In this document: positions 20,007 through 60,764 of the stretch, one piece after another | How positions within the stretch are numbered: position 1 is the first letter of the stretch | How the letters are laid out: each line of letters begins with the position of its first letter | Origin: Neodothiora populina | Lineage: Eukaryota | DNA length: 64,000 nucleotides | Direction: 5' to 3' | Assembly: GCF_041146345.1 (NCBI RefSeq) | Contig: NW_027191411.1 | Span: 1,426,001 to 1,490,000, forward strand | Notes under the pieces: model-generated | The model's database searches: none | Told to the model about the DNA's origin: nothing | Seen by the model: the letters and a program-made list of their open reading frames with translations, nothing else | Translations under genes and position numbers: made by a program

Positions 20007-22505
20007 ATGCCCCCGCTTAGCAATGCGTCAGGTTGGACTGCTTTATGACCCAATTTATACATGCTCAAACTCTGACCATCTCAGCGGCCGACACTATTCG
20101 TATCCTAGTTGCAACAGACAGCCATGTCGGCTACAATGAGCGAGATCCCATCCGTGGCGATGATAGCTGGAAGTCGTTTCATGAGGTTATGTGTCTAGCC
20201 AAGGAGCGCGATGTGGACATGGTCTTGCTGGCTGGTGACCTCTTTCATGAGAACAAACCTTCTCGGAAGTCCATGTATCAGGTCATGCGTTCTTTGCGGA
20301 TGAATTGCTACGGGGAAAAGCCATGTGAATTGGAAATGCTGAGTGATGCATCTGAGAACTTTCAAGGGTTTGTGCTTTGATGTCTAGATCTTATCCGTTC
20401 GCAAATCATATTTACATGGATGTCTAGTGCCTTTAATCATGTCAATTACGAGGATCCCGACATAAATGTGGCAATACCGGTCTTCTCGATCCACGGAAAC
20501 CATGATGATCCGTCAGGGGTACGTTCGAGTCACTGCTAAGCCGTCATTACATACCGCTGAGGTTAGCTAGGAAGGCCATCTTGCTGCGCTCGATCTACTT
20601 CAGATCGCAGGCCTGGTCAACTACTACGGCCGAACGCCGGAATCAGACAACATTCTGATCAAGCCTGTACTTCTCCAAAAAGGTCGGACGAAACTCGCAT
20701 TGTATGGCATGAGCAATGTCCGCGATGAGAGGCTATTTCGTACTTTCCGGGATGGAAGAGTCAAGTTCTTTCAGCCGAGTGCTCAGAAGTCAGATTGGTT
20801 CAATCTCATGAGCGTTCATCAAAACCAGTAAGTTTATACCCGAGAGTAGTGCCACCTGAGTGAGCCTCACTGACATTCCCAGTCATGCATACACGGAGAC
20901 AGGCTACCTGCCTGAGAATTTCCTGCCTGAGTTTCTCGATCTTGTCGTTTGGGGCCATGAACACGAATGTCTCATCGAACCAAGATACAATCCCGAAATG
21001 AACTTTCACGTCATGCAGCCTGGTTCGTCTGTTGCGACATCTCTTATGCCCGGAGAAGCTGTGCCAAAGCGTGTAGCTATCGTCAGCATTACTGGCAAAC
21101 AGTTCAAATCGGAGCCTATTCGACTGAAGAGCATCCGACCATTCGTCATGAAGGAAATTGTACTCCAGGAAGACAGTAGCATGAAGCGTATCGCAATGAA
21201 AGATGAAAATCGACCAGAAATTACAAGGCACCTCATAGCCATCGTAGAGGATCTTATCAAGGAAGCACAAAGAAATTGGCGAGAGGCTCAAGATGATGAG
21301 GAAGATGACGACTCGGAGCCGCCTTTACCGTTGGTTCGACTACGGGTCGAGTACACTGCGCCCGAGGGCGGAAGATTCGACTGTGAAAATCCACAGCGCT
21401 TCTCAAACAGGTTTGTCGACAAGGTGGCTAATGTCAACGACGTCGTTCAGTTTTATCGCAAGAAAACCAGCACGAAAAAGACTAAAGCTGAACCAGAGAT
21501 GCCTGAAGAGTCAGTCATGGCCCAAATGAGCATCGACTCTGTCAAGGTGGAGAAGCTTGTACGTGAGTTCCTCACAGCTCAGTCACTTACTATTCTCCCA
21601 CAAAACTCCTTCGGAGATGCTGTCAGTCAATTCGTGGACAAGGATGATAAGCATGCAATGGAAATGTTCGTCAATGAGAGTCTTGCCAATCAGGTCAGAC
21701 ACTTGAAGACGCTGGACAACGAGGATGAGACTGAAATCACCGCGGCCATGGAAGAATACAAATCCAAGCTCGAAGACCTCTTCGCTAGCGGCCATCTGAA
21801 ACGAGTTCACAAGGGGAAGCTCAAGCCTAAGCCTGACGGTTGGGATAGCGACTTCGACGGAGAGTGGACTAACCAGCCTGGCGCCCTCATACGATCTGAC
21901 AACGAGGAGGCAGATGAACAGGGTGATGATACAGTAGCGGTCGCATCGACAAAAAAGACTACTTCCGCCCGAGGTAGGGGTCGTGGAAGAGCGTCGAAGG
22001 CTACGAGTACGACGCGCAAAACAGCAGCTGCCAAGTCAAAGGCGCAGCCAGCCAAGAAGACCACTGCTAGGAATAGACGCAAGGATAGCGATGAAGATGA
22101 AGATGAAGAAGACGAGGATGTGATCATGATTGACGATGACGATGATGATGATGATGATGATGATGGAGAGGACGACGCGGACGATGGACTGTTCGTCAAA
22201 CAAACCACTAGTAGGGCTTCCACGAGGGCAGCACCAACTCGAAAGACTCCAGCGCGCACAACTGCGACCAAAGCGTCCTCTGGGAAGCAAACTATTTTGT
22301 CATTCTCTCAGTCGGCCAGTTCGAAACCGCCTCGTACAGCTACTGGAGGTCGTGGCCGCCGACAAGAGCCTGTAAGTCTACCTGCGGTCTATATAATTGA
22401 CTTTCTCAGACTAATTTTGTGTAGAGCGACGATGAGATCTCTGATGATGACGATGCCTTCGAGCCCGCACCATCAACAGCGCGCGCCACCAGAGCTCGCC
22501 GGTAG
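20007..22505 (+). CDS. MRE11: Double-strand break repair nuclease Mre11, 6 exons
   Basis: Phosphoesterase motifs [51 protein letters not shown]. Introns at 20032-20084, ~20369-20427, ~20519-20570, ~20828-20882 and 22372-22424. Stop TAG 22503-22505. Confidence 0.96.
22132..22164 (+). repeat. GAY/GAT repeat encoding D11 in the Mre11 acidic tail
   Basis: (GAT)8 at 22141-22164 preceded by GAC GAT GAC. Confidence 0.9.
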
Positions 22506-23420
22506 AGTCAAGGTAGTTGAGGTTCTGCAGCTAAGATGGCCACGAAGAGTGCAGAGGCCTTCAGCTCGACAACATTTCTCGACTGAGCTCATAAACCCTA
22601 CACTGAGGTAGCAAGAAGTCTTCACAGCTCTGTATGAAATCATTCAATCTCTCAAGCATTGGCTGTGTATCCACACGTGCGATCTTGCACACATAGGTAG
22701 TGGGAGCGTTCGGGTTGCGCCGCCTCTCCCATGTACCTTACTCAAGGCACTTCCTGGCATGAACATTACCTAGTCGAACTCCCGAACATGGTCCGTGTAA
22801 CGTTGCCTCTATTGTTACTCCATGGTCACAGAACATGGCAGTTGCAATGGGAACCGACGCAAGCACCGTGCCTGCTTCATTTCTGCCATCTGTGCACCAA
22901 GCTGAGCACTGCATGTCAAATAATTGAAGGCAGTAACCTGAAAACTGCTGTCACCTTCTCCTTCCATCAGAAAAGCATAGTATTTTGTTCAGTAACGACG
23001 TCTACAACAGGAAAGTGCTACCCGCTCACGACGGACTACAGTCCGGCCATGACTACAATCAACTTCTGGAAACCATCTCCTGGTCACCTCTATATGCACA
23101 TGCGACGCAGCAGACTCTTGGAAATCATCGTAATCTGTCTTCATTGAATCATTGCTCTACTTCTGCCAACACTCGCTTTTTGGAAACTCTTATTAGTCTA
23201 CCAGAACTGCATACAGAACAACTTCGTTCATAGAAAGCCTCTTCTCCTCGTAAGAGTGGTGAACCTTCTACCACTCGGGCTTAGAGCTGCTTTTCTCGAC
23301 TGACTTTGTCCACCGGGACGAGGAAGTAGGATCCTTGATGAACACACAGCACTCATCTTGCCATCTGTTCATCATCTGCTTGGAATTAACCGGACCTGGG
23401 TAGTTCCGATCCATCTCGTC

Positions 23421-26400
23421 ATGACGCAGAACTCTGCACGCCGAGCCTACTCGGCAGAGCAGTTGCTTGCGTTACGTGATTCTGCGTCTAATGAGCCTGC
23501 TCAGAAAATCGAAACAGGGGCTGGATACGGGGCCATCAAAGGTGTGTAATTGTTTACAACAAGTCTTCAGGGTTGCCGAGCCGAGAACATACAGGGAAGC
23601 TCTCTCATCACTACCCTGGCCCCTCGTGTACGCATCTCTTCTTGTTCCTTTAGCATGGCTTGTGAAGTGATGCGAGCCGCGTGGTTAACTCTATCATCGT
23701 CACAATGCTCGCCTCGTCAACTCATCGCACATCAGACGTGACACAAGATGTGTCCTTTGCTCACCATGAAGCATCCGCGTTGCATCTTGTGGAGGATTCG
23801 CCTCCTCCAGAAAAGATGCTAGTTGGAGATGCTGCAAGATACCTAGCTGATGTAGAACCAGACCATGTTCTTCGCAACGCTCACTCGTTCGCCGCACGAT
23901 CGACTCGCTCCTTCGCGGCGTCCGACTCTCTGCATCCTCCTGCTGGGCCTCGTCGAAGCAGTGGTCCGGTCCTGGCAGAAATAGATCCCAACAATCAATT
24001 GCTGCGTTCGGGTCTCAATCGCTATGGCCCTTCACCTACCCCGTCACTCGAAAAGACAAAGGCCGAGCAGATTCTCAAGGACCATGGCTCGCCACCTGGT
24101 CTCCGGGTCACTGCTGGCGGAAGAATCGTTCCAAGCGATCAGTCTCCTCTTTGCAGTCCCCGATTCGGATATAGTGCAATTCAGAGGAACGGAGGACTAA
24201 TTCGATTTGCTCCAAATTACCCTCCACCACCTGGTGCTGCTGCCTTGCAAGAGACATCGAAGAATCTTCCAAACGGCTTTGTTGCACAAGATCCAGGCGG
24301 CAGATTGCTTCAGGTGGTAGATGGCCAATTCCTGCCGGTCAACGAGATTAATGGGCTTCCGCAGTTGTATATTGCAGCGCCAAATCTGAGCAGCTTTCTA
24401 CCAGGCAAGGTTGAAGGTAGTGCAGGTCAGGGGCAGGGCGATCAACGCCATAGCGGGACCTCGGCGCCTCCAAGGATGCGACAACCCACTTTGACGACTT
24501 CGATTCAGCTTCAAGCGTTGGATAAACAATACGCCAAACTTGAACAGGAATCAAGAGAGCTTGACAAGCTCGAGGTGTTGCAACGGAGCAATATGTCCTC
24601 CAAGGCATACCAACAACTCGTCCAGACCCGTCGTGAGCTGGTGACTCGTCTTAATGACATTCGAATCAGCTCGAAGGCATTGAGAGACCAACAAAAGAAC
24701 AGCCCGGAGCATAGCTCGTTGCGAGGCGACGAGCAACCTTCACCACAACAGCAAAGTGGAGCCCCCTTTGTTGGGCTGCCCATGTTCAAGCATGATGACC
24801 AGCTTCCCGTCTCCCACTGGACATATGATGGACTCGTCCCTGAGGCGCAGGCGATGATGCAGTGTGCTGGAAATGCAGTAATTCCCATGCCCATTCAGAT
24901 GGAAATGGGATTCTTCGTACCTCACAACGGTGCTTTACCAGGTCAGCTCCCCACATATGCTGCAAAGGCAAGCAACGGAGGAACATTACCACCTCTATTC
25001 AATATGATGGGTGTCCCACCAACTGATATGGGCATTCCATTTGTTGGCGCGGTTCCTGGTGGTCCATCAGCCACTCAGAATCAGGTGCCTTTCATGGCAA
25101 CGGTCCCCAGGACTCAGGCTGCCGCAGAGGTGGGTCACAGTCTACACGAGACCGCGCGGGATTTTGTGACTTCCGAGAAGGGGTCCCCTCGTCGTTCTCA
25201 TGCTCTTGAGATAAGGTATCCAGACATCAAGTCAGAAGCTGCCCAAAGCAATAAGTCTTCACTCAATCCAATGAGCCCCAGCTATCAGCCCGCATCCATC
25301 GGCACCAGACCTTACGTGCCACAGGCCAAGCCAAGCCATGCTCATTCGAATTCGCCGTCACCTGCACTGGCCGAGGCTGTAAGGGCGCACAATGCATGGG
25401 TGGGCGAGACAAGAGCTGCCGCGACTGTTGGGCACTCGAAGCGAACCTATGGCTACGAGTCAAGCAATGCAAGTTTTACTACTGCTGACTTCTTTCCCAC
25501 CAATCCACGAGACCATTCGGCGAACAAGCAGGCCTATCCCGCCACCCGAAAGCGTTCATCGAATAGCTCCAAACAAAGAGAAGACGCGTGCCTATCGACA
25601 CCGGATGGCACCCTAGGCACACCAGAGAAAGAGCGTCACAACCCAAATTGGAATCCTACTATCCCAGATACTACTTTCGATACAACCATCACGTCCACTA
25701 TCGAGCAGCAAGGTACATCTGATAAACCAGTAGAGGATGACAGTGCAATATCCGCGAATGAACCCATCGACCGCCGCTCGCAGCATAACATGAGTCCAAA
25801 AAGTCGCCGCCCTGATCTCCTGCTCCGAGCTAGTGATGGGTCAACCGAAGAGAATCCAACCGCTGGTGGCAAGTCCGTTCCTCAGACAACTGTGCGCCCA
25901 CGTCAGGAACGGAACACCTCAACATCTTCAACTCGTTTGCCAGTGTCGAATGCCGGTTCTGCTTACATGGACGGTTTCAGGGCTGGCGAAAGTCGTATGC
26001 CAATCGGACCACAGTCGAGTAGCGTTTGGCTTGACGGCTACTGTGCCGGACTTCGAGCATCAATGAACGCGCAGATTGACGACGCAAGACCTTCCTCGAA
26101 TGAGATGCCGACCAAAGACAAGGCCAGCGGCAAGCAATTCGCCGTCGACGTGATGCCCCAAGGAAGTGATCAGCAGACAGCAACTCGACGTCCACCGCTT
26201 GAATTGAATGTTGCATCCTTGGACACGCTCAAAGAAGCCATCTTCTGCCCACAGAATGAGAATGTGCTCCTGAGTCTGGATTCGAGTGGGGGGGTGACCG
26301 ACGACACGGCCTGGGCTGCGCTTGGCGGATGTGCGAAACAACATGAAGCATCCTCGTCCAAAGAATCTGTCCTCATCCAGATACGCAATGGAGAAGCAGC

Positions 26401-27025
26401 TTTTCCCGAAAGAACAGCCTCTATGGTTCAGAGGCAGCTCTCGCCAGTGAACGTGAGCATAAATGATGGTAAACGCCCAGCGAGCCAGACTGCTAGCGAA
26501 CCAAAGGATGGTGGCCGTAGCTTTTCGGTCAGGAGCCAGCCAGACAGTAGTTCGAAGTCATCTTATTTCAAGGCCGTCTATCCCGGTCAACGTGTGTTGA
26601 GCTCCCAACTGGAGTGGAAGCCAGGAACATCAATCGCACAGGTCGCAGGTCTGGCTCAAGGATATGTCTCTCAATATGACGGTACGCTGAACGATCTAGC
26701 AGCTCTCGGTGACATGCCTTTGCTGACACGTAAGTCCGGCAACGCAGGCGCGAACGTTGGAGATGCAAGACTGTCGCCCACCAAGAACGTTTCAGCGGCA
26801 CCCTCATCACCGTCATCCCCACCAGGAACTCCTCGGTTCGTTGAGGGATCTATGGGGGCAAGCTCGACATCCTCACCTAGTAAGAAGTCACCCACCAAAG
26901 CCAAGTTTGCGCACATAGCAGGCAAAGCTGGAATCAAGGTTCGCATTGAGGAGCAAAGCGAACAGGAACGTGTCAGCACCAGGGACAAGGGTCGTTGGAG
27001 GGACGTATGGAGGAAGGGACACTGA
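23421..27025 (+). CDS. Uncharacterised disordered protein (~1,100 aa) with N-terminal eIF4E-binding-like motif, coiled coil and PABP-binding-like motifs; 2 exons
   Basis: Exon 1 is 23421-23541 (MTQNSARRAYSAEQLLALRDS...), with donor GTGTGT at 23542. Candidate acceptors ending at 23735, 23846 or 23855 all join in frame to ORF 23681-27025. Motif LKDHGSPPGLRVTAGGRIVP and coiled coil QLQALDKQYAKLEQE... Confidence 0.75.
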
Positions 27026-48040: not shown

Positions 48041-51000
48041 TCACTTGGCGGCAAGACATCTGGAAATGCTATCGCGCAGGATAGACGCTTCTGGAGCAGC
48101 TTGAATCGCCCGTCGGAAGCCAAATATACCACCGGAACGCTGACAAGTGTCGTAAGCCTCGGATGCGACAGATGCAATAAGGCTCTCGAGCGCATTGCCC
48201 ACGATCTTCTTACTCTCTAGCTGGAGCTCAGACAAACCTGATCCGCAGATCGAGTTGCTTCGGGAGTTTGTGCGGCTGTGGGAGCGCTCGTGCACAGAAC
48301 TGGCGCGAGATGGTGCGCTCGATCGAGTGTCGTTGGCTGAAAGCATTTGATCGGTGATGTTGACAATAGTCTGCTCTGGTTTGCTAATGATCTCCTCGAC
48401 ATAACGCTCTTCTAGAACGTAGCCATACACAGCAGGTTGGCGTTTTCCCCGCCTCTGATCAACGAAACCAGTCGGTAGATCATTGAGACCAGCATCTGCC
48501 ACCTCGGTCTCGTCTACTTCTTGCCATCCAGTCATCTTGCCCTCCGCGTTGCGCTTGGGAACGCGCCTCGTTGTAGTCGAAGGGGGTGGTGTTTTCTTAG
48601 TACGGAACGGCTTAGTTCTTTCATCGATAAAAGCTGTGAGGTCATCCCCAATTTGCTCCGTTGGAGGAGTTTGCGCATTGCCTTGCCGGGAGAGGACGGA
48701 GATTGCCGGTGCAATTGGTTGCTTTTTCGGACTGCTCGAAGTGCTGACTTTCGCGGCGAAGTTCTCGTAACTGCTTGTAAGGGAGCGGTCTCCACTGTCG
48801 TGCGACTCGCTGGGATCTGAGGACACTACACGCTTGTCTTTCCAGTCGACCTTGCTGCCAGCATCGTCTCTTCTGTATGTCCTCTTGACTGTGTCCATCT
48901 CGTCTGACCTGGTCACTTTGATGGCATTGATAGCAGCGCCACTGGCTGGGTGAGGCAGATCTTGGTCGCGCGAAAGCAGACTGTAACGGAGGTTGCGATG
49001 CAAAGTTATCCGCCTCACCGTCTGCGTGTCAGCATCAATCACGACCGTTGAGCAAACATCAACCCAACATTCCAACGGAAAGGAACGGGGATCTGTAGAG
49101 GAAAAGTCCGGCCAAGGAGATCGCTCGCCCTGCATTGCCAACTTGATGTCTTCTTCGATCTTTGCATATGGCTTTAGAGCTTGTAAAGCGTAGTCAGGAT
49201 GTAATTGCTCCAGACATCCGGCAACGCTGTCATGATCAGCATCGTCGCTCACAGCACCGACATGAACATTGCTCTGCGAGACCTGCTTGTCAGACGCGAG
49301 TGGAAACAGGCTGGCGCCCGTCCTAGGAACTTCGAAGCTTGTCCTACGTGAAGGGCCATCCCCAAGCACATGTACGTCAACTATGCTATTCTCGGCATCG
49401 TAGGTGTATCCCAGAGTCTGAGGTAACGCAGCGGGGTCCCGTCTCATAGTTGCCGGTACGTGGGCAGTTGGGGTGGGAACGCCGGAGTCCTTACGATCCG
49501 CCGCATCGCTACAAGGCACACGTAGCTGTGAAGCTTCCTCCACCATTCTTACAAGCTTTTTGCCACTGCTGCGGCTGAAGGACGTCTTAGCTGTCTTGAG
49601 TATGCCTGTATGAGGGTCTCCACGTAGAGACAGACTGTTCCCAGCGCCACCATCACTGCTGCTGGCATTAGTAGCACCCGATCCTCGTCGAATACCCCAG
49701 TTCCACGAAGTGCTGCGTAGAGAGCTCCAGAAGCTGCCGGATTCGGCACTCGTTTCACTCAAGGCACTATTGTTACGCTGCAGGTGCCGTAGCAGATCTC
49801 CCTGTGCGCTTGCACTACTGCCAGGTCTCGCATCAGGAGAGGCAGCTGGCGTAGTGTACGATGAAGAAGGTGCGCTCGCAATAGGCATCGCAGGAGTACA
49901 TTTTCCGCCAACATCTATCCGACTTTTCATACGCTGGATGGAGGTACCGTTTTGCGGCGCCGCAAGAGAGCCATTGACACTCTTGACAGGTGAAGTGCTT
50001 GTTGGAGGGGCGAAGGGAATGTTGAACGACGGTGGGTCAAGAATCATCCTTGCGGCTCTCATGGATACCTGCTCAACCTCAACATCTCCCAATCGCTGGC
50101 CGACTGCTCGAAGGCCTTGAGTCAACGCGGAGACGTGTTGCCCACGGGACAGGTTCGGTGAACGAACAAATTGCGAGGAGGAAGGTGAAGGACGTGTGAA
50201 AAATCTGGACAGGACATAGACTATTTGCCGTGCTCTGTTGTCGTCTGCAGACATGATGACCACTCTATTCTGTGCTCCAGTGGAGCGCCTCGATTCGCGT
50301 TGCAGGCGCGCTTGTAAGTGAATCGGGGCGAACAATCCTATCCACGTCGATTGAGAGGTCAAGGCAGCCGTCATTGCTACCTGAATGAAATTGATCCTCG
50401 CATTATCAGATCCCTTGCCAGAGCGGGTGATATCACGGAGCTCATCGCGCCAAATATTCCATTCATCCCGAGGCAAGGCTGGAACAACGTGGAAAGCTCT
50501 GCTTATGCGCTCAGAGGTCGATACCGCAGCGCTGACAATTGGTTCACGGCCATTTAGAGCGGCAGGCTTCAGTCTGAGTAAGTTTGATGTCGTAGGGATT
50601 CCATATAGATGACGTTTCGGTAGCACGTCGACTTCTTCCTGGAGCAATTGGTGTATGTGCGCAATGGCCACAGCCTCAAAAGCGTCTAAAGCTCGCACAA
50701 TCGTACGCCAATGATTAAGAACAGGCTGCACGTCAGGTTGAGCCTGTAAGTCTACAGATCTCGGTTGGGCAAGTGGTAGCAATACTGCAACGGCGAACGT
50801 AGGCGTAGTGTAGCGAGAATTGGCTGATGGCTTTGTGCCAGACCGATCAGACTCGAGTTCGCGCGAAGCTGTAGGCTTTGCAGGCACAGACTCTTGATCT
50901 TGCATAGGCACAACGAATGTTCTCGAGACCAAAAGAGCGGTCTTGATATGTTCTGAAGATGTTGATGTGGCCTCAGGTCCGTGTACTCCTGGCGACGTTA

Positions 51001-51718
51001 TGTGAGCCTGACGTTGCAAGAAATGTAACTTTGTGTTTTCGCCTTTGTATCTCATCTGGCCCTTGCCAAAGACACAATCCAGACATGAGTCCATCTCTTC
51101 TTTACTTTCTTCAATCGGCAATTGCGATTCGATCCTGGCGTCGGCCAATGAAACATTGTGGGACGGACGGCGGAGGGCACCAGAGCGTTGGCCAAAGATA
51201 GATTCCTGGGAAGATGATACTTGGGACATAGTCGCATGGTGCCCCTTCTGGGTCCGAACAGGGGACAAGGTAGTGTCAGAGCCATTGGAGTGGGAAATCT
51301 CAGACTGCGCAGAGATGCCCCGGAAGCGATTAGCAGGAGTGGATGCGGTGCCCCGAGGCTTGTTGTTTTGGCTCGCAGGACTGGTAGATATGGATGCCCG
51401 CACTGAGTCTTGTGCAGAGCGCTGGAATTGGGCATCCGAGTCGAAAAGTAGTCTATTCAAAGATACTCCGGTGTCATCCTGAGCGATAATGACGCGGATC
51501 CGTTCGCCGGCAGCGAAAGGCGAGTCTCGGTCTTCGTCTTCGTCGAACATGGGAGGGATAGAGAGCGGCAATGTCGTATCTTCATTGCCATGCCGGCGGA
51601 TGCGTTCAAGCACATCTTTCCACGGATAAAGTAAAGCTACATTACGGAAGAGCAAGGGAGATCCGCTCATCTTTTCTTGCTCGCGTAAAGTGAAGCTTGA
51701 GCGAGACAAGGCGTTCAT
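48041..51718 (-). CDS. Folliculin-interacting protein (FNIP/Lst4-like), single exon, 1225 aa
   Basis: N-terminal longin-like FNIP_N motifs IRVIIAQD...LLFDS...CLDCVFGK...NTKLH...LLVSRTF; later RVVIMS...ARQIVYVLSRF and HPDYALQA. Family assignment is from motif memory. Start could be 51670. Confidence 0.7.
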   Translation of the reverse strand: MNALSRSSFTLREQEKMSGSPLLFRNVALLYPWKDVLERIRRHGNEDTTLPLSIPPMFDEDEDRDSPFAAGERIRVIIAQDDTGVSLNRLLFDSDAQFQRSAQDSVRASISTSPASQNNKPRGTASTPANRFRGISAQSEISHSNGSDTTLSPVRTQKGHHATMSQVSSSQESIFGQRSGALRRPSHNVSLADARIESQLPIEESKEEMDSCLDCVFGKGQMRYKGENTKLHFLQRQAHITSPGVHGPEATSTSSEHIKTALLVSRTFVVPMQDQESVPAKPTASRELESDRSGTKPSANSRYTTPTFAVAVLLPLAQPRSVDLQAQPDVQPVLNHWRTIVRALDAFEAVAIAHIHQLLQEEVDVLPKRHLYGIPTTSNLLRLKPAALNGREPIVSAAVSTSERISRAFHVVPALPRDEWNIWRDELRDITRSGKGSDNARINFIQVAMTAALTSQSTWIGLFAPIHLQARLQRESRRSTGAQNRVVIMSADDNRARQIVYVLSRFFTRPSPSSSQFVRSPNLSRGQHVSALTQGLRAVGQRLGDVEVEQVSMRAARMILDPPSFNIPFAPPTSTSPVKSVNGSLAAPQNGTSIQRMKSRIDVGGKCTPAMPIASAPSSSYTTPAASPDARPGSSASAQGDLLRHLQRNNSALSETSAESGSFWSSLRSTSWNWGIRRGSGATNASSSDGGAGNSLSLRGDPHTGILKTAKTSFSRSSGKKLVRMVEEASQLRVPCSDAADRKDSGVPTPTAHVPATMRRDPAALPQTLGYTYDAENSIVDVHVLGDGPSRRTSFEVPRTGASLFPLASDKQVSQSNVHVGAVSDDADHDSVAGCLEQLHPDYALQALKPYAKIEEDIKLAMQGERSPWPDFSSTDPRSFPLECWVDVCSTVVIDADTQTVRRITLHRNLRYSLLSRDQDLPHPASGAAINAIKVTRSDEMDTVKRTYRRDDAGSKVDWKDKRVVSSDPSESHDSGDRSLTSSYENFAAKVSTSSSPKKQPIAPAISVLSRQGNAQTPPTEQIGDDLTAFIDERTKPFRTKKTPPPSTTTRRVPKRNAEGKMTGWQEVDETEVADAGLNDLPTGFVDQRRGKRQPAVYGYVLEERYVEEIISKPEQTIVNITDQMLSANDTRSSAPSRASSVHERSHSRTNSRSNSICGSGLSELQLESKKIVGNALESLIASVASEAYDTCQRSGGIFGFRRAIQAAPEASILRDSISRCLAAK

Positions 51719-52256
51719 CTCGCTGATTTTGGAGGTTGGATTCGTTGTGAGAGCAAGGCCTTTGGACAGACCTCAATTGCAATCGAACGCCCTGCACAAC
51801 AGTAAAGGCAGGATGCTTGTGGTCATTGAGACGATGGCGCTGTGAAGCAGACGCATATTCGCGTCAATTGACGAGGAAGCAATGGCCGGGATTTGTAGTA
51901 GGGAGGTGAACAAGGCAGGATGTATGTTTTTGAGTTAAGGTATTGAGTTAGGGTACGGTTGTTTTGCTGGAATAGTAAAAGTAAAGAAAGCAGCCTCAAC
52001 AAGAACTCGGCAGTTGAGGAGCGAGATGCTGTTGATGATCATGTGCTCTTCACCTGGTTGCAAATCGGTGCTCGCGTGCTCACACGTTTGGGAAGAGAGC
52101 GAGAGGTGAAGTAAAGTAGGTAACGAAAATCAATGGATCAAACAGATCAGGAGATGGCGGCTCTGCCTGTCTTTCCAAGGAAACGGTTACAGTGCGGGTT
52201 AGCAATTCAAACAACTGCGAGTGGTTCGCAGACAAGGTGGGTCTTTCCCCTGGTCA

Positions 52257-55222: not shown

Positions 55223-58200
55223 TCATTCCGAGCTCTTTGGCATCCCCTGGGTGCTAGCTCTCCTACTCGTCGGCCCCGGACCTCTAGGGCTGTCGAGAAA
55301 AGATATGCTTCTCAGCGTGATGGCTGGCGGCAGACCCAGCGACGGAATGAGCTCATCTGACACCGGAGCGTTTCGTGGGCTAGGACTAGGTGTTCCCGTC
55401 TCCTTGCTGAACGCCTGGTCATAAAACTCCTGCAGTCTCTGAGGATTGTGACACAGCTTTTCCAGGAGGTCTTTGATGTGCTCAGGGTCTGTGTTGGATT
55501 CTGCCGAGCCGTCGAGCCGTGTTTTCTTCCCGTTCCTTGCGGGTGTGTCTGAGACGGGGCGGATGTGAGGGGAAGTAAATGGCGACAGTGGTACTTGGCC
55601 TCGTCGCTGTTCGGAACGCTCGCTCCGCTCCGCTTTGTCGTACTTACCTACGTCTCTTGCCGCTGAGGAGCGATCTACACATAAGCGATTGGCGCAGAGC
55701 ATGAAGTCTCCGTCATCGCTGATTTGTATGAGCAGTGCCCCCGACTTGTGAATGAATTGCGTGTATCTGTAGTCGGGCTTGCCCCATGAGAACGTGACTT
55801 CGACACCCTGGTCAAAACTACTGGCAGCTTCCAGGTCCAGCACAAAGTCATATTTTCGCAGGATGGCTCTTGAGTACGGGTGTGTCTCCTTTGACTCATC
55901 TTGCGTATGCTGCGAGGTTACGGAATCCGTGTCGTAAGTCGGCCGAGTCTTCGGAGGTGGAATACAAAGTTTGATGATGTACGGCCTTCGAAACGGATGC
56001 TGGCTGAGCAACTCATACCCTTCAGCGATAGGCACTTCCACCAACCTAAGACCATATCGCTCCACACAGCTAGCCCATGAACTGATAGCATCCTCAATCA
56101 GCTTTGGAGTGGCGTTCATCCAGTCCAGTCGGAGATGGTAACAGTTCTCTGGGTTGTGAATGCGATCATAATGCAGGTTAATGATCTCGGGGCGATAAGA
56201 GCGTTTGCGATGATCGACATCATATCTGAGCACCCTGCTGAGGACGAGTTTTGGTTTCTTGCCAAATGTCTTTGACGAGCTGTCCACGCTTAGCGTTTCC
56301 ATGCTCGATCCTGTTCCGGACCTCTCCGCGGGGTGAGAACGAGACGTATCCCACGGCCTCAATCTAGGCGAGTCTGACGGTCGTAATTTGGGTGACGCCC
56401 ATGGTCGCAAGCTTGGTGAATCCCTCGGTCTGAGCATTGGTGAGCCTTTGGGCCCTTCGAACATCGGTGTCGATGGTACAGAACGACCTGAGCCGAACCA
56501 ACTTTGTCGCATATCTGACGCTGGCAAGGTGCTGTATTCTCCAGCGATCTGATAGAAGTAGTTGCCATCGCGGAAGTGATGCTTCTGCATGACATGCGTG
56601 AATAAGCCCCTCTCCATCAAAGCGTCACCAAGCTTGACAGCTTCTTCTCTGGTCTGAATGTCTTTGAAGTTGGAGAGCAGCCAGCTTGTCAAATGGTCTC
56701 CTCGAAAACATCTGTGATGATTTCTGAAATGCCATCTGCGATCAGCCAGGGGAACTCCTCTTGGAGGATCAGCTTGCAGATGCTGAGCAAGCTTCTGCAT
56801 GTCGAAGTCACTGGTATGATATTGTTCGGGGTCGTTCAATGCTTGGTGTGCTGGCTCCCCTGCAAGGAGTGTGTCTGCCAAGCCAACGTGGTTCCGCACC
56901 ATCTGCGAGGGATCTCTTGTGTGATACTCGATTGCAAGCGGATTCGGGTCCTTCTTCTTCTGCTGGAGGGACTGCTGGAAACGCCGTTCTTCCGGCGGAA
57001 CGTATCGATTCTTCTGCCAAAGCTGCGTGAGCTTTTGTATACCCTCCAATCGAATCTCTTCATCGGAGTTCTCAGAAACGAAACCCAGTTGTCCACCGCG
57101 AATCGTCGGGTTTACGGGGATGAGTACGAATCGTGCCCGAGAGTAGCGAAGTACAGGCGAGAACTCCTCTTCGTACCCAGCAAGGTGTTGGTCGATCGCA
57201 TTCCAGTAGTATGTAGGTCGAGGGTTCTTGAATATGATCGGCTGCAAGACATACCCGTGCGCAAGATACGTTCGAATATATGGCTTGTATGGCACAGAAG
57301 GGTCGACGGCCCCCACAGACTCAACAGCTGCCACGGGTTTGCGTATATACCGTCTGATCTCTATTTCTCCGTCATCAGTACAGAGGAGTTGATGCAAATG
57401 GTTCCCGATAGTCATCAATACAGTGGCGCCATCTTCCGTCATATAGTTCTTGTTGAAGACTTCGACAAGTGAAGCAGCGTCCGAGCCGACAAACTCATCT
57501 GCTGCTGAGCCGACGACAATCTGAAAGCCATGTGACAATCGACACGAAACGAGTTCTCTCATCAGAGCCTCTCGCGTGTGGGGAGCTTCTGACATCTCGT
57601 CGTCGTCAATGGGCATGATCTTATAGGTGTATTCGTGATAGTCGTTCTTGAGCTGTTCCGCACTGGGAAAGTACTCGTTCGTCAAGGGCAATGCAGCAGG
57701 ACAGCATAAAGACTTCCATTTTATTGCTGATGTGGGGATTGCTCTCGGAAAGACATGCTGCCAGCGTCTGAACTGGCTAGCGATGTTCATGTTGTGTTTC
57801 TTTGGGTTGGATGGATTTAACATGGTAAGCCATGGTGACATAGCACTTAATGGAGACAATGTTCGGTGAAGATCAAAATTGTTACCGGTCGGGCCTGACC
57901 CAGAAGCAGCCCGTGGGCCACTCTGACGACCGATCATCGACGCATCTCTAAGCACTATGTCGTCAACCTTAGGCATTGAAGCATCACGAACTGTGATCAT
58001 CTGTGACTCGTCATCTTTATCTCCGGTCTGGTCCTTGATAGTTATAGGTATGCTTCTGTAAGCTTGAGATGACGTCGTTATGCTGTCGCTTTCGCTGCCT
58101 TGGTCACTTCTCACTGTCTGTGCTAGACTAGCTTGAGATGGTTTGCGTGTGAGTGTGTTCAGGAGCTGCTGCGTCAAGCTGGAGAATCTGCTGGACGCCG

Positions 58201-60764
58201 GCTGGTGCTGAGCTGGTGCTGGTGAAGGTGGTGACAAGGGTGGAGCGGTCTCGGCAACAGGAGTGACCCCAGCACTCTCCGTACTGACGCTTGTACTTGC
58301 GACGCTCTTCGCAGTGCCCAACCCACGCGGACCCAGACTTATCTGGCGTGGCATGGGCGCTCGCTTCCTGACTGCGGGTGTGGCTTGATTTGAGATACGA
58401 TCATGGGATTCCCGCACAGCTCGATCGCGCTTGTGAGGTGATGTGCCGGCTTTCCAGCCGCCGCCGCCACCGCCTCCATCACCACGAGGAGTGGTGTCAG
58501 AAGCGAAGGAACTTGATATCTCCTTTTGTCGTGTCTTGTTCGGAGACAGCCCCAGACTCGTCATGTTGTTCTGCGCAGCGTCGTGGTTCACATGTTCTAG
58601 GATAGTCTTCGTGGAAGTCTCTGGTTCATCAAACACATCTCGATCGTACTGGTTCATTGAATCTAGCAGATCCTTCGTATCATTTATGGCGGGGAGAGTG
58701 GCACCCTTTCGCCTAATGAGTTGCATGTGCGAATCGAGGTATGACTTTGAAGAACCGACGCTATCCGAGATCCGTGTCTCTTTCGGATGCGACCCAATCG
58801 TAGCGAGGCCTTTCGGTACCTCGTGCAATCTGTCAGGCAAGAGGGCGATTGCAATGTCGCTCATCTCGTTTTCCATCAATCCCATCATCTGAAGCTCATA
58901 CATACGACAGCTAGTCGTGAAAGGGCGCTTGATCTTTCTATCGGAGCCTTTTCGCCCATCAGCCAGGCCGTGCTGCGCTCGCACTTGGGCCTCATCAGCG
59001 TGTCCTGTCCAGAACGACACATCGATCCAGTGAGGTAGTGCATAGCTCCATTCAACACCAGACTCTACTTGTGTGCCAAAAGCAGGTTCTGCTCCGTTTT
59101 TTGATGGAAATTGTCCACCTTGCCGAAACGTAGCACCTGCGGCAGAATTGCGTGGGAGCACAGATTGTCTTGGTGTGCTTCCAGCGTGGAATGACATGGG
59201 ACCGTGATGGAAACCTGGTGGCGCATGAGGTACGCGAGGACTACGATACCTGAAGAGAGGAACTGAGTGCAAAGGCATACGCGCCAGGGAAACAAGATCA
59301 ACTCCGATGCCACTGCCAACAAGAACGTCTGTCGTGAGCTTGAGCATATTATAGTCGACCTCAAATACACCAGTGCCCGCGGTTATGATCGCGAGCGAGA
59401 TGCCTGTACGCACAAGGTCGCGGTCGATATAGTCTCTTGCAAACTGGGAAGAAGCTAGGTTGATGGCCTCCAATATATTGCCTCTTGCCGCCGTCGTCGG
59501 TTGACCTGCTATGACCGACTCCATCGTTGTTGTTGCTTTCACCCCGGCTATTGTTTCAGGCGGCCTGCCGTAGGTGTCATTGCCACCGACTATAGATACG
59601 TCGCGCAGGAATAGCAAGAATTCTCTCCTCAGCCTATAGAGGATATCGACCCATTTGCCGCTGTTCGCTTCAGTGGTGACCACACGGTAGTAGTCACGAA
59701 AATCCACGTCTTTGCCATGTATCCCATCCTCGTCATAGGTGTATTCCTCGTCATCGTGGTGGATCAAGGTTCCCTTGTCGTACTCCATTCTAGTGAAAAG
59801 TACAATACTCACCAGGTGGCGGACGCTCATTCTCTGCCATCTTTTGAAGAGGTCGGGTAGAAAACCGTTGATGACTTTGCTGAACATGATCTCGCCAGAG
59901 CCTTCGGCATCAAAATCCCACATTTCTCGGGACATTTGTATGTAGATAACGTACTTGGCCGACTCACTTCGAAAAATGGGCTTCGTATCCGAGGAGAAGT
60001 AAGCGGAGGAGATCCTTCTACCTGAGCTATAGATGTTCTTGATGGTAGCCTTGATAGATCCCATAAAGTGAATCCTCTGGCCTTTGAAAATTGACCTCTG
60101 GTTGAGCTCGGATACGGTCAAGCGCCACATATCTGCTCTCGAAAGATATTGGTCGCGAAAGACAATCTCCACATGAGAAGCCGTATGTAAGTCTTGTTCG
60201 ACCTAGATGCGGGAAACTGTTAGTTTGTAGACATAGGTATACTCAGTCTTTACCGAGTGGCAATACTCACTGGAACGACGACCACCTGCATATTATTACG
60301 GAAACCAAAAACCGATGCGGCTGACGAATTCACGGATATCTGGTTCTGATCAGCCCATATCCACATTATAACATCATAAAATATATCATTACCTGCACGC
60401 CACGCGACTTCCGTTTCGAATCAGTGCTTGGTTGCAATGGCTGAGCCACAAAAACCATAGACTTTGAGGTATCCGCATGAGAGTCAAGTCCTGACGGCTT
60501 CCTTGTATCATACTGCCGTTTCCGGCTCGATGACTTCGCGATATCATTTTCCCTGGACGACGGATTTGCAGTACTCGATGATATGTTTTGAAAGTCTTGT
60601 ACTGCGCTCGACGCCAGACGAGCTGCGAGCAGGTACAAAGAGCCTTGTTTCAGAGGAAGTTCTTCCGGGTCGTAAATCACTATGCCCTCGGGATGCTCGT
60701 CATCGTTGTGGACTGACAAAGTGCAATACAGTTGCGCTGGCTGGTCTTGCCCCTCATCTGGCAT
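55223..60764 (-). CDS. IML1: Vacuolar membrane protein Iml1/Sea1 (DEPDC5; SEACIT/GATOR1 GAP subunit), 3 exons
   Basis: Exons 60764-60393, 60339-60271, 60202-55223. Motifs ASHVEIVFRDQYLSRADMWR, IFRSESAKY...QMSREMWDFD, GNILEAINLA...RDLVRTG, KWKSLCCPAALPLT; DEP domain DRRWH...F.G...W...HHFRDGNYFYQ; LHYDRIHNPENCYH. Confidence 0.95.

Follow-up and report, generated by a model that had tools for sequence, protein, structure and literature searches.

The canonical motif of eIF4E-binding proteins (4E-BPs), Y-x4-L-Phi (Phi being a hydrophobic residue), has been given in an extended form as YX(R/K)X2L-Phi-X2(R/K) (PMC6061780), and non-canonical motifs are described as lying 15-29 residues downstream of it (PMC4164784). 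Yeast p20/Caf20, whose N-terminus reads MIKYTIDELFQLKPSLTL (PMC5928113), is reported to carry its motif at the extreme N-terminal end, K13 filling position 9, and to continue with a flexible linker and a hydrophobic helix (F27, I31, V34) (PMC6061780), and the corresponding region of 4E-BP1, residues 50-67, reads TRIIYDRKFLMECRNSPV (PMC12102759). The only fungal 4E-BPs named in the literature consulted, p20/Caf20 and Eap1, have been reported only in Saccharomycotina, according to a 2020 review that left Pezizomycotina out (PMC7139794), and a paper on Magnaporthe eIF4E mentions only yeast and mammalian 4E-BPs (PMC8244596). Here we describe a gene in a 64,000-nt stretch of the genome of Neodothiora populina (Dothideales, Dothideomycetes; contig NW_027191411.1, positions 1,426,001 to 1,490,000, forward strand), which we refer to as the window and to which all coordinates below apply. 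The first exon of this gene, which is absent from the deposited gene model, encodes a conserved Y-x4-L-Phi motif, YSAEQLL, at the N-terminus of a large protein and makes that protein a candidate 4E-BP.

The initial annotation of the window had proposed that a long open reading frame (ORF) was preceded by a separate first exon containing YSAEQLL, that the ORF call had missed this exon, and that a start further downstream would lose the motif. The sequence bears out each of these points. The long ORF (23666-27025, forward strand, 1119 amino acids [aa]) is 100% identical to the deposited protein P0001 (hypothetical protein AAFC00_006952, 1088 aa, Neodothiora populina), the start of which lies at 23705; the deposited model is therefore likewise without the exon, and its ATG does remove YSAEQLL (23448-23468). 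Exon 1 spans 23421-23541 on the forward strand and comprises 121 nt, made up of 40 complete codons plus the G that opens codon 41 (phase 1). It begins at the sole in-frame ATG downstream of the preceding stop (23421) and is bounded directly on its 3' side by the donor AAAG|GTGTGT at 23542. The encoded N-terminal peptide is MTQNSARRAYSAEQLLALRDSASNEPAQKIETGAGYGAIK, opening with MTQNSARRAYSAEQLLALR; the basic residues said to precede the motif are R7 and R8, and the arginine said to follow it is R19, three residues after L16.

To compare this exon among relatives we used public protein models, referred to by P numbers, and metagenome contigs, against which a pattern of the N-terminal module gave 62 matches and 18 confirmed loci (L001-L018), all of them genomic DNA. 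Variable sites in exon 1 are distributed over first, second and third codon positions as 4/4/16 of 38 in one set of loci (L005, L007, L011) and as 2/2/15 of 42 in another (L001, L004), and this concentration at third positions argues that the exon is translated. Exon 1 is moreover present in many public orthologue models, so that its omission appears to be an annotation error of the N. populina genome. Taken together, these comparisons make it very probable that exon 1 is a real, conserved, protein-coding first exon, and the correction of the N. populina gene model stands whatever the function of the protein. The spliced product is a protein of ~1095 aa, mostly of low complexity and largely disordered.

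The splice from exon 1 to the long ORF, 23541^23862, is also well supported by comparison of the window with 13 metagenomic loci (14 entries); L003, L010 and L015 were left out because their contigs end before the anchor used, and L008 and L009 because they repeat L007 over this stretch. As defined in this way, intron 1 (23542-23861, forward strand) is 320 nt long and of phase 1, with the donor GTGTGT at 23542-23547, a branch-like CTGAT at 23847-23851 and the acceptor CAG at 23859-23861; exon 2, delimited from the ORF and an alignment of 85 family sequences, runs on the forward strand from 23862 to the stop at 27025. The conserved acceptor is CAG|AC at 23861|23862, giving the spliced reading ...GAIK-DHVLRNAHSFAARS... 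(GAIK-DHVLRN). All 14 entries agree in three respects: conservation stops at a phase-1 GT donor, one base into the codon next to (I/V)(K/R), an in-phase YAG stands immediately before the second base of the D/E codon that precedes HV[LIV]R, and a CTGAC, CTAAC, CTAAT or CTGAT lies <=25 bases upstream of that YAG. CTRAY-type elements resemble fungal branch sites, and GTRNGT resembles fungal donors. The implied introns are 132-365 nt long and fall in all three classes modulo 3, and the spliced frame is always kept. Furthermore, the codon before the aspartate ends in A in all 7 distinct Dothideomycetidae entries (L002 repeats L001 and is not counted), while the amino acid that it encodes varies (P, A, A, T, V, S, S), as predicted by selection on an AG acceptor and not on the residue. 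The residue before the histidine has a G-initial codon in 95 of 96 collected proteins with the anchor (E in 60, D in 32, V in 2 and G in 1), the exception being a single Q.

Public gene models treat this junction in several ways. The 142 collected proteins that contain the module core comprise 69 with read-through at the donor and 68 models that splice exon 1, the other 5 being unresolved. Of the 68, 48 use the conserved junction to (D/E)HV[LIV][RK], 12 continue from exon 1 at a point further downstream and 8 have other junctions. The direct join of exon 1 to exon 2 is also found in two Logan-derived proteins, P0142 and P0311 (979 aa, from contigs of ~3.5 kb), which fall in a 90%-identity cluster that includes proteins of Plenodomus lingam (Leptosphaeria maculans); the contigs are presumed to be transcript assemblies, which suggests that the join occurs in spliced transcripts. 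The acceptors put forward in the initial annotation (23735, 23846 and 23855) are all in phase, and none of them is the acceptor conserved across relatives. Position 23846 sits upstream of the putative branch, and 23855, being 5 nt past the putative branch A, would be a minor alternative adding two residues. The 12 models with joins further downstream include the Pleosporales proteins P0082, P0083, P0087, P0124, P0145 and P0156; five of eight such joins inspected go straight to AE(K/R)LLKEHGSPPG and omit the EHVLR region. In five Pleosporales loci, the bases before that alanine codon (AAG or AAA, then GC.) give no acceptor in the phase of the exon 1 donor, and the joins therefore appear to be either artefacts of gene prediction or the product of a different donor. 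Elsewhere in the gene, P0001 excises a 54-nt GT...AG "intron" at 26649-26702, which deletes 18 residues (GLAQGYVSQYDGTLNDLA); because these include a D-G pair kept in 83 of 85 aligned orthologues, this intron is probably mis-annotated.

Within intron 1 lies an ORF (23705-23860, forward strand; MLASSTHRTSDVTQDVSFAHHEASALHLVEDSPPP...) that shares the frame of exon 2 and opens with an ATG of its own, the annotated start of P0001. The peptide that it encodes is conserved across 21 aligned Dothideomycetidae sequences and keeps its ATG in all 21, a count that is biased because gene models must begin with Met. In L005, L007 and L011, variable sites within this ORF are distributed over codon positions as 5/7/24 of 49, with no indels, whereas the part of the intron that precedes it gives 28/24/23 of ~48 and has indels of lengths not divisible by 3; the Aureobasidium pair L001/L004 shows a weaker signal (13/13/21 of 52, one 3-nt indel). 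Judged by this substitution pattern, the intronic ORF is coding, and intron 1 of the Dothideomycetidae also encodes a conserved peptide, a result that is independent of the function of the protein. In the Pleosporales loci (L016-L018) the frame opens just 18 nt before the histidine, and the intronic peptide is absent. Since a conserved in-frame ORF with its own ATG occupies intron 1, the Dothideomycetidae gene likely has two alternative N-termini, produced either by splicing exon 1 to 23862 or by a read-through start at 23705, both of which would then be in use. Only the form with exon 1 has the YxxxxL-phi motif, and the deposited model represents the 23705 form. A comparison of the two N-terminal peptides with hhalign showed no relationship (probability 0.2%), and a diverged duplication of exon 1 was accordingly rejected as the origin of the intronic one. 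At 23837-23861, and at the same place in L001-L018, the codons for "L-T-(D/E)" of the intronic ORF overlap the branch-like CTRAY, and its last codon, before (D/E)HVLR, overlaps the AG acceptor of intron 1; these bases thus seem to be constrained in two ways, by the peptide that they encode and by their part in splicing.

The N-terminal module encoded by exon 1 consists of the decapeptide YSAEQLLALR (Y10-R19; 23448-23477, forward strand), in which the canonical Y-x4-L-Phi (23448-23468) is extended to an arginine at position 9 (counting the tyrosine as 0), followed at 23478-23540 on the same strand by a Ser-rich linker (S21, S23) and then by conserved hydrophobic positions that reach to the end of the exon, a segment that may serve as a non-canonical motif or in regulation. 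The 1095-aa spliced product contains exactly one Y-x4-L-[LMFIVW], at residue 10. In 5000 composition shuffles of the protein the mean number of such motifs was 0.29, and 0.5% of the shuffles had one in the first 30 residues. The bare motif is therefore weak evidence, and its conservation and N-terminal position are what count. As to position, an in-frame ATG lies 2-12 codons before the motif tyrosine in the window and in 17 of the 18 metagenomic loci, and 29 codons before it in L015. As to conservation, the module reads M..(R/K)AYSAEQLLALR.SASDE in Dothideales and Myriangiales and MSLAYKVEELLALRDSVSES in Pleosporales. In an alignment of 20 module peptides (A2), L15 (position 5), R19 (position 9) and S23 (position 13) are invariant (20/20), Y10 and L16 are each retained in 18, position 8 is L or M, and a serine occupies position +11 in 19. 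Columns +18, +22 and +33 after the tyrosine are hydrophobic in 19-20 of the 20 peptides, and the hydrophobic columns fall inside the 15-29-residue window described for non-canonical motifs (PMC4164784). The Y/L/L pattern on which the initial annotation had staked its reading is kept in most of the 129 collected module-core proteins, with Tyr in 126 and Leu-Leu (Leu at position 6) in 123, and gives way in three orders, each of which alters a defining residue (Tyr to Ser, or position 6 to His or Arg).

When the N. populina segment AYSAEQLLALRDSAS is set beside p20 and 4E-BP1, Y0, L5, the hydrophobic residue at 6, R/K9 and S11 coincide with both proteins, and L8 with p20. The likeness to p20/Caf20 thus comprises a motif at the extreme N-terminus, equal spacing and conserved hydrophobic residues after a linker; in contrast, p20 is a small protein with demonstrated eIF4E binding, whereas the N. 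populina protein, a putative binder of eIF4E, has ~1095 aa and no Pfam or profile similarity to p20. With 4E-BP1-3/Thor it shares the arrangement Y-x4-L-Phi-x2-R-x-S, spaced as in the reported residues 54-65 of 4E-BP1 (PMC12102759), including a serine at +11 that matches the 4E-BP1 serine two residues past the arginine, but those 4E-BPs are ~12 kDa and show no sequence relationship to it beyond the motif. 4E-T/Cup resembles it in being large and mostly disordered with an eIF4E-binding region (putative here) at the N-terminus, residues 1-58 of Drosophila 4E-T being reported to suffice for binding, with a non-canonical motif in residues 32-43 (PMC4164784). The N. populina protein differs in having no eIF4E-related Pfam match, even below threshold, and neither a DDX6-binding region nor shuttling signals were identified in it. 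Eap1, finally, is also large and disordered, and this 4E-BP is reported to connect eIF4E with Dhh1 and decapping (PMC7139794). Its Y-x4-L-Phi motif (YSMNELY; PMC5928113) is, however, internal, within the reported fragment K80-G150 (PMC6061780), and no sequence similarity between the two proteins was detected.

These parallels suggest a mechanism in which the N-terminal module, formed by the amphipathic helix YSAEQLLALR, the Ser-rich linker and the conserved hydrophobic positions, would dock on eIF4E as yeast p20/Caf20 and the metazoan 4E-BPs do. In such a complex, Tyr10, Leu15 and Leu16 would contact the dorsal surface of eIF4E, in competition with eIF4G, with Arg19 at position 9, and the hydrophobic residues that follow might extend to the lateral surface. 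Ser21 and Ser23 could act as a phospho-switch, and the long disordered remainder of the protein would then act on the eIF4E-bound mRNA. In the Dothideomycetidae, the start at 23705 would give an isoform without the eIF4E-docking module. We regard docking of the module on eIF4E as plausible, at somewhat less than even probability, and the competition with eIF4G and the phospho-regulation as further suppositions. As a reading of this family, the 4E-BP interpretation is new and plausible, though the replacement of defining residues in particular lineages weakens it.

Several observations weigh against it. In Botryosphaeriales the tyrosine is replaced by serine (3 of the 129 module-core proteins, and also P0227), and at position 6 Mycosphaerellales carry His (6 of 129) and Trypetheliales Arg (P0323, P0226). 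Complete invariance is confined to L5, R9 and S13 and does not extend to the defining tyrosine or to the hydrophobic residue at position 6; since the module is otherwise unchanged in those three orders, the two motif-defining residues are not where the strongest constraint falls. At position 2, 18 of the 20 A2 peptides have A or V (Lys in 1, Leu in 1), not the R/K of the extended consensus; Chaetomium eIF4G is reported to be without both basic residues (positions 2 and 9), and fungal eIF4E without the acidic partner of position 2 (PMC6061780). Y-x4-L-Phi is itself a motif of low information, as the 0.29 expected per shuffled protein indicates, and the Logan contigs that carry the spliced form are transcripts by presumption. 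Profile searches likewise lend the interpretation no help. At E<=10 the module profile had two matches in the PDB, both attributable to chance (a designed repeat protein and a Harakiri peptide), and none to a chain of a 4E-BP, 4E-T, p20 or eIF4G; the 20 module sequences matched no 4E-BP family in Pfam at E<=10, giving chance matches only; and seven full-length orthologues yielded nothing relevant to eIF4E in Pfam at E<=1. Searches with the exon peptide, the 20 modules and the seven orthologues, together with the PDB profile search, thus did not place the protein in the Caf20/p20 or 4E-T families, and the likeness to 4E-T and Caf20 on which the initial annotation relied could not be traced beyond the short motif in Pfam and PDB profile searches. 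Among 49 long ORFs from the window, a Pfam scan identified no eIF4E gene.

The main competitor of the eIF4E reading accepts the exon and its splicing as described and supposes that the conserved helix has a different binding partner, or that it serves chiefly as a phospho-regulated element around the invariant L-R-x-S-x-S, the Y-x4-L-L being coincidental. The invariance of L5, R9 and S13, the changes at the tyrosine and at position 6 in three orders with the module otherwise intact, the lack of a profile link to any 4E-BP and the little information that the motif carries all favour this explanation. The residues around S23, with L at -5, R at -4, S at 0 and a hydrophobic residue at +4, resemble the consensus of an AMPK/Snf1-type site. 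Set against this, no alternative partner can be named, six positions are spaced as in p20 (and as in 4E-BP1 but for L8), and the motif stands at the extreme N-terminus, as in p20, with conserved hydrophobic residues following at the expected distance. We give this explanation about the same weight as eIF4E binding, somewhat below even for each; eIF4E binding is nonetheless the single likeliest specific mechanism.

Two further explanations concern the structure of the transcript rather than the partner of the module. Exon 1 might instead be joined at one of two upstream acceptors, 23735|23736 or 23747|23748, to give one protein with both the module and SFAHHE...LVEDSPPP and hence no alternative N-termini. 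This has in its favour that either acceptor would be in phase, that the intronic ORF is coding, and that the Zasmidium model P0041 and Aureobasidium pullulans P0010 (the latter in a cluster of 77 member sequences) contain both peptides. We nevertheless consider this arrangement unlikely, given that the acceptor before (D/E)HV is present in 14/14 entries, whereas in L004 the first in-phase acceptor lies 281 nt into the intron, none being able to join exon 1 upstream of the intronic peptide, L006 has just one such acceptor, 53 nt past the donor, and the positions are not conserved elsewhere. The ATG of the intronic ORF, present in all 21 aligned sequences (subject to the bias towards Met noted above), and the complete absence of the intronic peptide from Pleosporales (L016-L018) point the same way. 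Far less probable still is that the "exon" is an upstream ORF (uORF; 42 codons in the window, stop at 23547-23549) whose conserved peptide regulates translation of the annotated ORF from 23705. An unspliced reading does end two codons past the donor, third-position-biased variation fits a conserved-peptide uORF as well as an exon, and the annotated ORF starts downstream. A peptide of this kind would be expected to end unspliced at a conserved stop, but conservation halts at the GT donor, and the read-through tails are unconserved and range from 1 to >30 residues; the donor phase and the in-phase acceptor are kept in 14/14 entries despite intron lengths of all classes modulo 3. Pleosporales, furthermore, offer no other start further along, and in their models the exon is joined to EHVLR. 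The reading that we prefer remains that of a first exon spliced to 23862.

A search with the ORF identified 87 relatives, 23 of which have the canonical module at or near the N-terminus and five more a variant of it. The A2 profile matched 222 proteins at E<=10, and among the best 120 of these 222 every named one is from a Dothideomycete. The whole-family profile matched 346 representatives at E<=1e-3; the best 150 of the 346 all belong to the family, and the named relatives among those 150 come from Dothideomycetes and from one Chrysothrix metagenome-assembled genome (MAG), an Arthoniomycete. The initial annotation had spoken of a filamentous-fungal regulator, a scope that is too wide for the matches listed, in which relatives were seen only in Dothideomycetes and in the one Arthoniomycete MAG. 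ESM Atlas matches were unnamed Ascomycota clusters only, and the whole-family profile found no relative in the PDB.

The initial annotation had recognized no MIF4G domain in the rest of the protein, and in agreement with this no Pfam family scored above threshold in the 1119-aa ORF or in the seven orthologues. Their sub-threshold matches were to coiled coils only, at about residues 225-348. The relative from Baudoinia panamericana (P0228) is named "Enkurin domain-containing protein" in UniRef, and there is no such Pfam match in the N. populina ORF or the seven orthologues. The conserved blocks of exon 2 are DHVLR..RSFAARS, HGSPPGLRVTAGGRIVP, a coiled-coil-like stretch and TADFFP. Exon 2 also encodes LNPMSPSYQP (25262-25291, forward strand), which resembles the consensus of the PAM2 motif that binds PABP, reported as LNxxAxEFxP (PMC7356810), but has S for A7 and Y for F10, and so has neither the Ala at position 7 nor the Phe/Trp at position 10. 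The pattern L.P..P.[YFW].P is present in 196 of 209 collected family proteins of >=700 aa, and four segments of the LNPMSPSYQP type had no Pfam match at E<=10. We therefore treat LNPMSPSYQP as a lead to a possible PABP-binding site; should it turn out to bind PABP, a place for this protein in messenger ribonucleoprotein particles would become more likely. A more speculative proposal, to which we assign a low probability, is that this family of the Dothideomycetes and their sister class couples both ends of the mRNA, with a p20-like helix on eIF4E, LNPxSPxYxP on the MLLE domain of PABP, and alternative first exons in the Dothideomycetidae switching the cap-binding module on and off. If true, such an mRNA-end-coupling family would be the first 4E-BP-type regulator described for Pezizomycotina.

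A literature search whose reach stopped short of subscription journals and supplements found nothing on this family, on the locus tags of its orthologues or on any 4E-BP of Dothideomycetes. The Dothideomycetes include many plant pathogens and extremotolerant fungi, and an N-terminal p20-like motif found across the class is a candidate for a role in their cap-dependent translational control.

Elsewhere in the window, the reverse strand carries two genes with relationships to TORC1 regulators, one FNIP-like (48044-51772) and the other Iml1/DEPDC5 (SEACIT; 55226-60202); no link between them and the motif protein was seen. Directly upstream of exon 1 and on the same strand is an Mre11 gene (20860-22611, forward strand). 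Mre11 is likewise upstream in 11 of the 18 metagenomic loci (L001, L002, L005, L007-L010, L012-L014 and L017), the other 7 having <1.5 kb of upstream flank, and the two genes are thus neighbours from Dothideales through to Pleosporales. Fusion of gene models with the neighbouring Mre11 accounts for the names "meiotic recombination", "DNA repair exonuclease" and "mus-23" borne by members of the family.

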